Source: Patescibacteria group bacterium (lineage in GTDB: Bacteria > Patescibacteriota > Patescibacteriia > SG8-24 > DYFX01). Taken from it: DNA of 64,000 nucleotides. Position numbers and translations under genes: made by a program. Below, piece by piece: positions 17,984-26,159 of this stretch (position 1 is the stretch's first letter; each line of letters begins with the position of its first letter). Below the pieces are notes generated by a model. That model had not been told where the DNA came from. It ran no database searches and was given only the letters and a program-made list of their open reading frames with translations. Location of the stretch: the NCBI GenBank assembly GCA_041659045.1, contig JBAZZB010000001.1, positions 390,111-454,110 on the forward strand, given 5' to 3'.

Positions 17984-18016
17984 ACGTGGGTCGCCCCACA
18001 CGCCTGCTCATGGCTC
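17984..18016. repeat. 33-nt direct repeat acgtgggtcgccccacacgcCtgctcatggctc. It is identical (1 mismatch) to 26127-26159, which spans the 3' end of tRNA-Asn plus its flank. Putative attL-like island boundary. A degenerate tRNA-3'-half-like sequence follows it.
   Basis: Direct sequence comparison. Downstream ggctcacaggtagcgattccc resembles ggctccgaggctgggattcgaaccc of the tRNA. Confidence 0.55.
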
Positions 18017-18143
18017 ACAGGTAGCGATTCCCACTAGTCTATAAACATTAGTTCTAGCACCTTTGACATCATCGCCAACCGCATGCTAGCCTCCTTCCGC
18101 ATCGACTTGGTGTCGATGGCGTTGCACGGAAGGAAGAGGATAG

Positions 18144-18833
18144 ATGCGACTAGGAAAAGCTCTTTTGGTTTTTGCGCTCATTGGATCGGTATCGGTGGCA
18201 TGTGTTGCCGACATGGACGCCCCGACGTCTGACGACGATGGCGACACTGACATCGGGACTACGGTACAAGCGGTCACGACCGGAAGCTACTCCCCAAGCT
18301 CGGCGGTCACTTATGCGCTAAGCTATTGTGGAATTTCCGGCGAGCAGACCTTGCTAGTAACGGCTGGGTACAATCCATACTACCAATCCTACAACCCCAA
18401 CGACTGCACGAACTTCGTGTCCCAGGCCCTTGCGTTCGGAGGCTGGCAGCCAGTCGGCGGCACGTGTTGGTGGTGCAGCGGATCCTGGTACTACCTCAGT
18501 GCCGGCGACCACAACCGGAGCAACTCCTGGGCCAATGTCTCGGCCTTTCGCACTTTCATGATCAACTCCGGGAGAACCAACGGGGCGGTGTCCATTCCGC
18601 AAAGTCTATCGACTATCCCACGATTCTATGCGGGAGATGTGATCCTGGCGGACTGGACCGGGGACGGCTCGTGGGACCATGCCTACATCGCGACCGGACA
18701 AAACGGCGACGATGTCTGGCTCGCCGCACACACAACAAACCGCTGTGGCGACATAACCCTCAGAGGCGTCCGGCAACAGAAACCTCAAGTGGTCTTCCAG
18801 GGATTCAGGCTCAAGACCACATATACGTACTAG
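18144..18833 (+). CDS. Secreted protein with a putative Cys-His amidase/peptidase domain (NlpC/P60 or CHAP-like; putative-amidase-domain family).
   Basis: Signal peptide; NDCTNFVSQALAFGGW (catalytic Cys candidate) and GSWDHAYIATG (His candidate). Confidence 0.45.
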   Translation: MRLGKALLVFALIGSVSVACVADMDAPTSDDDGDTDIGTTVQAVTTGSYSPSSAVTYALSYCGISGEQTLLVTAGYNPYYQSYNPNDCTNFVSQALAFGGWQPVGGTCWWCSGSWYYLSAGDHNRSNSWANVSAFRTFMINSGRTNGAVSIPQSLSTIPRFYAGDVILADWTGDGSWDHAYIATGQNGDDVWLAAHTTNRCGDITLRGVRQQKPQVVFQGFRLKTTYTY

Positions 18834-18888
18834 AATCGGCCACGTCAGAGGCATCCATTACAGATGCCTCTTTTCTTATTCGGCTGAA

Positions 18889-19482
18889 CTATTGTGCAAT
18901 TCCTTCATCCCTCTTGAACCTCTCAACTGGCATGGATTCTAAGGTGTTCACGTCTTCCCCAACAGGTTCGGTTCTCACGAATTTGTAGGAATTACCCTCG
19001 CGACGGAAGAAGGCGACGCCGCCGGTCCATCCAACATTTCCTTCGCCGGGGATGTGTGCCGAAACGCTTGCGATCATGGCCACGATACGATCCAGGCCTT
19101 CGTATGCTCTCGGCTCACTGATGACCGGGTCCACGTCAATCCCCTTTTTCAGAGATTCGAGAATGGCGGCATATTTCTTTTTCTGCTCAGCGGTGCTCGC
19201 AGCAGACAATTTCGCTTCGTATTCCTTGGGGAGCGTCTCACGGTAGCTGGCTGCATAGTACTCACGGATGTACTCACGCATCGCCTCCTTGTCAGCTTTG
19301 CTCAGGTGCGCCGACATGACGCCATTCCTGGCCATGTAATCCGGCGACAGGCAAGACCAACTGTCGAAGCAGGAGGATCCGGTCTGAGCTTTCCTGTCTC
19401 GCTCCAACCAGAACCAGGATGTCACCCCGACCAATGCGAGGCTGTAGACCACGATAAGGAGTAAAAAATACACTCGCTTCAT
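18889..19482 (-). CDS. Hypothetical membrane-anchored protein.
   Basis: N-terminal TM helix (VYFLLLIVVYSLALVGV); no motifs; low GC. Confidence 0.45.
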   Translation of the reverse strand: MKRVYFLLLIVVYSLALVGVTSWFWLERDRKAQTGSSCFDSWSCLSPDYMARNGVMSAHLSKADKEAMREYIREYYAASYRETLPKEYEAKLSAASTAEQKKKYAAILESLKKGIDVDPVISEPRAYEGLDRIVAMIASVSAHIPGEGNVGWTGGVAFFRREGNSYKFVRTEPVGEDVNTLESMPVERFKRDEGIAQ

Positions 19483-26036: not shown

Positions 26037-26087
26037 ATGGTTTTTGTCGCCGTCACCTTAGCACGGAAGGTTATTCAATGAAAATGA

Positions 26088-26121
26088 CAAAAACCCACCA
26101 CTTTCGTGATGGGTCTTTGAT
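26088..26121. repeat. Copy of the 34-nt hairpin repeat (see 19802-19835). On the minus strand it acts as a terminator-like hairpin + TTTTTGT about 30 nt 3' of tRNA-Asn.
   Basis: caaaAacccaccactttcgtgatgggtctttgat. Confidence 0.55.
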
Positions 26122-26126
26122 CAAGC

Positions 26127-26159
26127 ACGTGGGTCGCCCCACACGCTTGCTCATGGCTC
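26127..26159. repeat. 33-nt direct repeat spanning the last 6 nt of tRNA-Asn (incl. CCA) and 27 nt of 3' flank; partner of 17984-18016. Putative attR-like boundary.
   Basis: acgtgggtcgccccacacgcTtgctcatggctc. Confidence 0.55.

Follow-up and report, generated by a model that had tools for sequence, protein, structure and literature searches.

Do two direct repeats beside a transfer RNA (tRNA) gene mark the two ends of one element? The question is raised by a stretch of 64,000 nucleotides from a Patescibacteria group bacterium (assembly GCA_041659045.1, contig JBAZZB010000001.1, positions 390,111 to 454,110 of the forward strand), here called the window, in which a 33-nt sequence stands at the 3′ end of tRNA-Asn and again at the far end of an interval of about 8.1 kb. 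A first-pass annotation had described this interval as a single integrated island of about 8.2 kb with the classical signature of integrase-mediated insertion at a tRNA 3′ end. The foreign insert next to tRNA-Asn was borne out, as near-empty sites occur in three related loci (L010, L009 and L003). Its description as one element was not: the 33-nt pair (R′/R) is interleaved with two other repeat pairs (A/A′ and T′/T), and what looks like a relic of the empty site lies inside the interval. Our best explanation, held with moderate confidence, is a composite accessory island that reaches from an isopentenyl-diphosphate-isomerase-like gene (IDI) to tRNA-Asn and was formed by at least two insertions into an intergenic region of about 0.1-0.8 kb.

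The repeat search confirmed the 33-nt pair at both places. With up to three mismatches allowed, the 33-mer ACGTGGGTCGCCCCACACGCYTGCTCATGGCTC has exactly two copies in the 64 kb (17984-18016 and 26127-26159), which differ at one position (C/T); none was found in 100 shuffles. ARAGORN places tRNA-Asn(GTT) on the minus strand at 26154-26228; of the 33 nt of the proximal copy, 6 (GAGCCA) thus form the end of the tRNA and the other 27 belong to its 3′ flank. The interval directly 3′ of the tRNA gene thus carries, at its far boundary, a direct repeat that holds the tRNA-Asn 3′ end. Gapless extension widens the similarity of the distal copy (R′) to the proximal copy (R) to 54 nt with 85% identity (17977-18030 versus 26120-26173). 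The 34-nt flank that touches the CCA end of the tRNA (26120-26153) is here called Rf, and its distal counterpart Rf′. The 33-mer does not belong to a dispersed intergenic repeat family, a possibility that the first-pass annotation had itself raised against its reading: there are only two copies in 64 kb, and in relatives it was seen only beside tRNA-Asn. A tRNA-3′-half-like stretch had been noticed beyond the distal copy. Past this copy 9 of the next 14 nt agree with the tRNA, but no tRNA fragment was recognized at R′ by ARAGORN or by Rfam (E<=10, 17600-20000), the latter giving chance terminator-like matches only.

The composition of the interval is deviant. Its GC content is 52.6% (18017-26126), as compared with 57.5% in the window minus 16011-26153; the shift is real but smaller than the roughly 50% against 58% estimated by eye. 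In windowed GC and tetranucleotide profiles the interval is the sole long stretch of the window that deviates in both. The right edge of the deviant region is sharp (at about 26100), whereas the left edge lies near 16000, to the left of the distal repeat copy. A second tetranucleotide-deviant stretch, at 3500-7000, is GC-rich (0.59-0.61) and unrelated to the island.

What the site looked like before the insertions can be judged from relatives. IDI has 247 homologues at E<=1e-30, those with a source name being mostly from Patescibacteria or Parcubacteria, and shows loose synteny with the left-hand genes of the window in loci L009 and L010. Judged from these comparisons, it is chromosomal backbone and the left anchor of the variable region. 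The genome scan with IDI as query provided two loci only, and the metagenome scan with the terminator hairpin of tRNA-Asn (hairpin T) as query provided one. In L010, IDI, a terminator, one 227-aa gene, a terminator hairpin abutting the CCA end and tRNA-Asn (97.5% identical) follow each other within 820 nt, and neither recombinase nor Rf is present. In L009 the IDI terminator is followed, after 12 nt, by hairpin T (97% identical to T′, the second copy of this hairpin in the window), and in L003 hairpin T abuts the CCA end of the tRNA. An exact empty site from the same species was not found in these scans. Since IDI and tRNA-Asn are only 820 nt apart in L010, about 8 kb has been inserted in the window. 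The comparison thus supports the presence of foreign or accessory DNA between IDI and tRNA-Asn, and points to IDI terminator, short spacer, T and tRNA end as the ancestral order.

The same order is found inside the interval. On the plus strand the elements follow each other as A, spacer x, R′, 1.58 kb with the amidase and 197-aa genes, A′, spacer S, T′, 6.24 kb with the 138-, 301- and 212-aa open reading frames (ORFs), the recombinase and Ppl, and finally T, R and the tRNA (Table 1). T′ and T match over 41 nt with four mismatches, all in the first 12 nt, which leaves an identical core of 29 nt. Projected onto the contiguous T-R reference, T′ ends where R′ begins (26120/26121); beyond T′ and a 7-nt indel stands AAGCACG, with which the R flank opens. 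The segment A′-S-T′ (19608-19836, 229 nt) has a backbone-like GC of 0.568. With the order seen in relatives, it looks like a relic of the original IDI/tRNA-Asn intergenic junction, enclosed in the interval. No series of nested simple insertions with the 33-mer at their ends can interleave three repeat pairs in this way, and at least two events are needed.

Table 1. Features of the window from the left of IDI to tRNA-Asn
Feature	Position	Strand	Description
Island-type relic left of IDI	16114-17060		GC 0.505; homologous to L004 3116-3219 and 5685-6531, inside a recombinase island
Fused Peptidase_M23 remnant	16154-16248		3′ end joined to 5′ region across TTCCAGTTGT repeat; intact 833-aa gene at L004 3164-5665
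232-aa ORF	16291-16989	minus	Homologue of 228-aa gene of the L004 island
IDI (NUDIX / isopentenyl-diphosphate-isomerase-like gene)	17204-17863	plus	Pfam NUDIX 4e-17; GC 0.565
Repeat A	17746-17891	plus	Last 118 nt of IDI and terminator hairpin; 146 nt, 1 mismatch (99%) to A′
Spacer x	17892-17976		Between repeat A and distal 33-mer copy
R′ (distal copy of tRNA-flank hairpin/dyad)	17977-18037	minus	Rf′ 17977-18010, 33-mer core 17984-18016, GAGCCA, degenerate tRNA-like stub to 18037
Amidase_6 secreted protein	18144-18833	plus	Pfam Amidase_6 5.8e-25
197-aa membrane-anchored orphan	18889-19482	minus	Partner of amidase gene; no Pfam or PHROG match; only 3 homologues
Repeat A′	19608-19753	plus	Truncated second IDI 3′ end and terminator; sequence upstream unrelated to IDI
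Spacer S	19754-19795
T′	19796-19836		Copy of tRNA terminator hairpin
138-aa orphan ORF	19838-20254	minus	No Pfam, PADLOC or PHROG match; no homologue in fetched loci
301-aa orphan ORF	20291-21196	minus	No Pfam, PADLOC or PHROG match; no homologue in fetched loci
212-aa membrane-anchored ORF	21138-21776	plus	91% aa identity to gene upstream of L004 recombinase
Large serine recombinase, integrase class	22022-23326	plus	434 aa; Resolvase, Recombinase, Zn_ribbon_recom
Ppl-like single-gene defence protein	23349-26036	minus	895 aa; N-terminal PHP nuclease domain and SMC/ABC-type ATPase
T	26081-26121	minus	Terminator hairpin downstream of tRNA-Asn; L004/L006 homology starts here
R (proximal copy)	26120-26159	minus	34-nt Rf (26120-26153) touching CCA end, and last 6 nt of tRNA
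tRNA-Asn (GTT)	26154-26228	minus	ARAGORN; 97.5% identical to L010 tRNA

In the composite that we favour, two units would have entered between IDI and tRNA-Asn. Unit B (about 19837-26153, 6.3 kb) would be what erosion has left of a phage-like element, with the large serine recombinase as its integrase. The integrase end of unit B would face the tRNA, with Rf at the CCA end as the tRNA-side junction and with a cargo slot, here occupied by Ppl, between the integrase gene and this junction. The far junction would be the native hairpin T′, still joined to the IDI 3′ relic. The tRNA and Rf on one side and the native T′ on the other fit an insertion of unit B that parted the hairpin from the CCA end. 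Unit A (1862 bp; 17892-19753 or, equivalently, 17746-19607) would comprise the amidase pair and a second Rf copy with its tRNA-like stub, and could have been added by a single crossover between a small circle (A-x-R′-amidase pair) and the chromosome inside the 146-nt homology. A 146-nt bracket of 99% identity is the pattern expected from a single crossover of this kind. The 33-nt repeat would then be a pair of Rf copies, one in each unit, and not necessarily the ends of one element.

The recombinase assigned to unit B is an integrase-class protein. It matches PF00239 (1e-21), PF07508 (1e-11) and PF13408 (4e-7), as well as phrog_95, annotated as 'integrase' (9e-65), and residues 15-20 (YARKSS) lie inside the matched catalytic domain. 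Its length of 434 aa is at the short end of the size range of large serine recombinases. More than 8000 homologues were found, and those with a source name are from Patescibacteria; exact-protein look-ups of the window recombinase and IDI gave no record. No ORF of the interval matches a tyrosine-type integrase, and the only recombinase is of the serine type.

Four sister loci at tRNA-Asn carry related recombinases, and the space between recombinase and tRNA differs from one to the next. It is occupied by Gabija (UvrD helicase and OLD/TOPRIM ATPase) in L004 (CP129476.1, a 1.17-Mb genome; recombinase identity 93%), by a 1264-aa protein without Pfam match in L006 (85%), and by CBASS (DncV-like/SMODS and SAVED) and more in L008 (68%). 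There is no cargo in L007 (82%), where the stop codon, the terminator hairpin, Rf and the tRNA end lie within 75 nt. The recombinase gene therefore stands at the element end beside the junction, directly in L007 and elsewhere with only cargo between. L004 15440-20846 corresponds to window 26081-31487 (81% nt identity over 5.4 kb), that is, from the first base of T rightwards, tRNA-Asn included; L004 9215-11268, with the 212-aa gene and the recombinase, corresponds to window 21182-23289 (85% nt), the homology starting at 21182. Upstream of the sister recombinases lie phage-like genes in varying combinations: a ParB_N-N6_N4 methylase and further methylase genes in L004, L006 and L008, a 132-183-aa gene in sister loci, Peptidase_M23 genes in L004, and an approximately 500-aa protein with a weak Terminase_6C match in L006. 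An integron-like platform was considered as well and rejected: the cargo lies on the recombinase side of T and does not split Rf, and no cassette-end repeats flank it.

The presence of Rf goes with that of the recombinase. Rf is found between the CCA end and the terminator hairpin in all five recombinase-bearing tRNA-Asn loci, and is missing in L003 and L010, which have tRNA-Asn but no recombinase and in which the hairpin abuts the CCA end. Rf is an imperfect dyad; read as RNA on the tRNA-sense strand it forms a 12-bp hairpin with tandem G.U pairs, and the 80-nt fold of Rf and hairpin T has a z of -5.3. One covarying pair of the dyad is A-T in R of the window and in L004, versus G-C in L006, L007 and R′. 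R′ shares two variant positions with the L006 and L007 sites and not with the proximal copy of the window, which argues that R′ is not a decayed local copy of R. In the IMG/VR scans the R core, hairpin T and a degenerate Rf pattern had no match.

The association with tRNA genes extends beyond tRNA-Asn. Sixty IMG/VR loci encode homologues of the recombinase (42-56% identity), and in 16 of them a tRNA gene (Ser, Gln, Glu, Asp, Trp or Arg) lies downstream of the recombinase and convergent with it, at a distance of 120-5600 nt. A second recombinase paralogue of CP129476.1 (59%; L075, 316142-337437) lies between methylase and terminase-like genes on its upstream side and a convergent tRNA-Gln on its downstream side, the cargo position being taken by a KAP NTPase of 1010 aa. 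Family-wide, the tRNA species seen are Asn, Gln, Glu, Ser, Asp, Trp and Arg. Of 22 such flanks (those of the window and L004 being identical and thus not independent), 12 have the motif GACC[C/G] starting at +19 to +24, counted from the tRNA end; shuffled flanks averaged 0.9, with 5 at most. To judge from these counts, the tRNA-adjoining flank is specific to the family and not random host DNA. It is chiefly for this specificity that we read Rf as an attachment-site arm, and we infer that the recombinase is an integrase acting at or just beyond tRNA 3′ ends.

The insertion at a tRNA 3′ end that had been proposed from the repeats therefore holds as far as the integrase-class gene, the family's position beside tRNA 3′ ends and the presence of Rf in every recombinase-bearing tRNA-Asn locus are concerned, but the enzyme is of the serine and not the tyrosine type, the island is composite, and a second flank copy was not seen in the other family loci. 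In 17 other family loci no second copy of the locus's own tRNA flank was found over 4-15 kb upstream of the tRNA, and the site core of L047 has one copy only in a contig of 33 kb. A tentative generalization, for which the case is nearly balanced, is that large serine integrases throughout the Patescibacteria insert phage-like elements at the tRNA 3′ end or trailer, leave behind a family-specific hairpin/dyad in which GACC[C/G] is placed at +19 to +24, and preserve an exchangeable defence slot between integrase gene and tRNA.

Two kinds of observation in the IMG/VR material touch on this family. In four loci (L018 at about 5025-5092, L033 at about 11830-11916, L056 at about 9390-9494 and L034 at about 10680-10780) the tRNA and the dyad site are followed, 40-85 nt on, by a second T-arm/acceptor-like fragment, GGTTCGAATC; these fragments may be stubs of earlier insertions or part of the element site. 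In each of six viral contigs (3300042286_000458, 3300032737_000190, 3300000970_000154, 3300014205_009253, 3300014208_000734 and 3300009873_002614) a recombinase homologue is present twice, the copies lying far apart, which may reflect concatemers, tandem elements or a pair of different elements.

Several observations weigh against the composite of units A and B. A circular junction, an excision product or an exact empty site from the same population was not seen. Unit B does not have the phage-like genes of the sister loci (ParB-methylase, terminase-like, M23 peptidase), and the distal site was not found in L004 (15 kb) or L006 (13.5 kb), where the far end of the sister element was not reached. 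T, on the element side, has the 29-nt core of the native T′ and of T in L001, L003 and L009, whereas sister elements bear other hairpins at this position; a simple insertion by the serine recombinase does not explain this likeness, which would be accounted for if T and T′ had later undergone exchange or if the unit had entered through a crossover in T. For spacer x no homologue was seen in the fetched loci or in the rest of the window, so that either x or S-T′ may be the native sequence. Against more than 70 loci, BLAST gave no match for spacers x and S, for the tRNA-like stub or for the left end of unit B, and fuzzy searches for the stub and the unit B end were likewise negative. Finally, the island-type DNA left of IDI (16114-17060) needs yet another event.

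The alternative closest to the first-pass annotation is one 8.14-kb element, inserted at the tRNA-Asn 3′ end by the resident serine recombinase or by a tyrosine integrase that has disappeared; R′ and R would be the junctions, and the IDI/terminator relic would have been picked up in an earlier host by imprecise excision. Recombination of one such circle with an IDI-A-x-Rf-tRNA arrangement reproduces the whole layout, and the low GC throughout the interval, the tRNA end within the repeat and the restriction of Rf-type sequence to the recombinase family are all compatible with it. The variants that R′ has in common with L006 and L007 also suit an element end that did not arise by decay of R, and the TGGG/CCCA of the stub and Rf′ lie equally far (about +/-20-23 nt) to either side of the tRNA-end CCATGA, which recalls a dyad recombinase site. 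This model, however, makes x the native spacer, which matches nothing, while A′-S-T′, with its backbone composition, matches the native order of relatives. It further requires a second copy of the tRNA flank, seen in no other family member, and a 33-nt repeat, longer than the 2-21 bp repeats that flank integrative and conjugative elements (ICEs) with serine integrases (PMC4701971). R and R′ each keep a matched pair in the dyad, A-T or G-C, and so have a parental rather than a recombinant look. A crossover at the dyad centre of Rf is unlikely on the same account, as R, R′ and all sister sites keep internally matched arms. We consider the single element unlikely, though it is the strongest of the alternatives.

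If R′ is of independent origin, as suggested by the variants it shares with L006 and L007 and not with R, it could also be an old tRNA-side junction. The island would then have grown by tandem accretion: an earlier recombinase element, eroded to Rf′ and x, would have been pushed away from the tRNA by a later insertion at the tRNA end. Rf is always the tRNA-side junction in sister loci, and repeated use of the site is common, as indicated by arrays in L001 and L009 that hold the tRNA-Asn 3′ end downstream of IDI. Insertion by a serine recombinase, on the other hand, destroys the target, and reuse needs a different site or mechanism; in addition, accretion explains neither the 146-nt A/A′ repeat nor the position of the IDI/terminator relic on the tRNA side of R′. 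We regard it as doubtful.

The repeat arrays themselves consist of a unit of about 100 nt, with a conserved left arm, a T-like hairpin with compensatory stem changes, TGGCTCCG (the last 8 nt of tRNA-Asn) and a conserved 25-mer. In L001 (IDI 94% aa identity) and L009 the hairpin is followed by these last 8 nt and the conserved 25-nt stretch. As direct repeats parting small gene groups downstream of IDI, the units occur four times in L009 (5084-5151, 6645-6712, about 10420-10484 and about 12475-12539), and one lies at 5159-5226 of L001, with an excisionase-like ORF beyond it. Hairpin T thus belongs to a locally repeated family in L009 and L001, unlike the 33-mer. The arrays look like serial insertions at tRNA-Asn or a cassette-like array, and the tRNA-Asn site has evidently been used repeatedly in this clade.

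Returning to the composite, two observations speak for unit A as a discrete unit. The convergent pair of amidase and 197-aa genes occurs in L077 (79% nt identity) in an ordinary, unrelated chromosomal context, and window 17862-19637 is matched without any difference by an independent Logan contig, L071, both ends of which fall 30 nt inside repeat A. The metagenome reads SRR18595301, from which a contig identical to 17862-19637 is obtained, also yield one identical to 22417-26181. As 30 nt is k-1 of a short-k assembly, short-read graphs cannot tell an integrated unit A from a free circle. Unit A might accordingly be an 1862-bp circle or a strain variant that was threaded into the contig through the 146-nt repeat, the chromosome having unit B only; L071 is equally compatible with a circle, and A and A′ are one base apart. 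Against such an assembly effect, the junction of the unit A end with the truncated A′ is real sequence, unit A has no replication gene, and the length of the source contig (646 kb) suggests that the repeat was bridged; we think it improbable. That Rf is merely a lineage-specific 3′ trailer hairpin of tRNA-Asn, serving processing or termination and locally duplicated with no role in recombination, agrees with its 12-bp fold on the tRNA-sense strand (the tandem G.U pairs being mismatches on the other strand) and with the A-U to G-C covariation between loci, but is very hard to reconcile with a GACC[C/G] at fixed position beside seven tRNA species wherever a homologous recombinase adjoins and with the lack of Rf at two tRNA-Asn loci without recombinase.

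For the composite, catalysis of the insertion at the tRNA 3′ end by the recombinase, entry of unit A by homologous recombination and the order of events are what we infer from the layout; whether a single event, two events or accretion is assumed, one feature is always left without explanation.

The gene calls made for the interval in the first pass were upheld by Pfam, PADLOC and PHROG in the case of the recombinase, the PHP-ABC-ATPase fusion and the amidase-like protein, and the several orphan proteins correspond to four ORFs without a match in these three collections. No structural match indicative of virion, packaging or lysis genes was obtained with PHROG or Pfam in the interval, which is not an intact prophage. 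The 895-aa protein next to the tRNA-side junction matches the PADLOC Ppl model PDLC02208 (1.7e-42) and Pfam PHP, PHP_C, SMC_N, AAA_23 and AAA_21. Ppl has been described as a defence system of one gene that combines a PHP exonuclease with an NTPase domain (PMC12904381). Our protein is alike in being a single gene with an N-terminal PHP domain fused to an SMC/ABC-type NTPase. It differs in that residues 6-659 match only profile positions 4-648 of 894, about two thirds of the profile, while the C-terminal part is closer to the ATPase models of PDC-M49A, AriA and GajA. A defence context is suggested by Gabija, CBASS and a KAP NTPase, which fill the same slot in sister loci. The benefit of the island to its host is likely to be the predicted defence encoded by the Ppl-like gene.

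In its general kind the locus is a familiar one: a composite, partly eroded, tRNA-Asn-linked defence island. Such islands are commonplace. Like the islands and prophages with tyrosine integrases (P4-like elements, ICEs), it lies 3′ of a tRNA, has a repeat with the tRNA end, deviates in composition and holds variable accessory or defence cargo; it differs in having a serine recombinase only, in an identity block that is mostly 3′ flank (27 of 33 nt), and in not being a single unit. The Resolvase, Recombinase and zinc-ribbon domains, the gene at the element end by the junction and the phage-like neighbours in sister loci are shared with the large serine integrases of the phiC31, Bxb1, A118, TnpX/TndX and CcrAB type. 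Those known enzymes are reported to use protein-coding and not tRNA genes, with cores of about 2-21 bp (PMC9262239, PMC4701971), and tRNA targeting is regarded as the domain of tyrosine integrases, whereas the present family is convergent with tRNA genes in 22 of the loci analysed. The fixed frame of integrase, junction and tRNA with swappable Ppl, Gabija, CBASS or KAP NTPase resembles the prophage and satellite defence hotspots of P2 and P4, from which it differs by the Patescibacteria host, the serine integrase and the missing remainder of the phage-like element. The less usual features are thus the integrase, which is a serine enzyme of a tRNA-associated family, and the bounding repeat, which is one of three interleaved pairs.

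These features give the locus some wider interest. Patescibacteria have tiny genomes, and their mobile elements and immunity are poorly described; here mobile defence cargo is documented as being swapped in a fixed frame in this group. A serine recombinase that stands steadily beside tRNA genes is contrary to the textbook division between tyrosine and serine integrases. Serine integrases serve as genome-engineering tools, and the flanks provide candidate attachment (att) sites for a new set of them. Mycobacteriophage serine integrases are reported not to use tRNA genes (PMC9262239). If the family does insert at tRNA ends, tRNA targeting would have had a separate origin with a different att-site logic, and in the window the recombinase could still use both Rf copies as substrates to excise or rearrange the 8.1-kb block. 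The locus also illustrates how interleaved repeats can mislead when direct repeats are equated with element ends.

Some smaller observations concern the breakpoints and the tRNA genes. A 26-nt motif, GGTACCTGGTACC, upstream of A′ was considered as a sign of a larger IDI duplication and dropped, since it is also present at 12620 and 16085 and is therefore dispersed. The motif TATYCGGTACYTGGTACCAARNGGAC, with two tandem GGTACC, has four copies in the window (12620-12636, 16085-16101, 17065-17081 and 19586-19602), all on the plus strand, versus 0.04 expected, and is also found at L009 6599-6624. Each copy lies at a synteny or mosaic breakpoint, and three of the four are also about 100-135 nt upstream of the start of a minus-strand gene; the motif could be a promoter/operator or a recombination site. 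A tRNA-Ser(GGA) at 32722-32809, 6.5 kb to the right of tRNA-Asn, is kept in L004, with no adjoining island seen. In L003 (787-1396) the anticodon loop of tRNA-Asn is interrupted by about 530 nt of inserted sequence; the insert has an HNH-like ORF and resembles a group I intron, and the gene is not called by ARAGORN. The tRNA-Asn of L008, from about 15595, seems to be arranged likewise.

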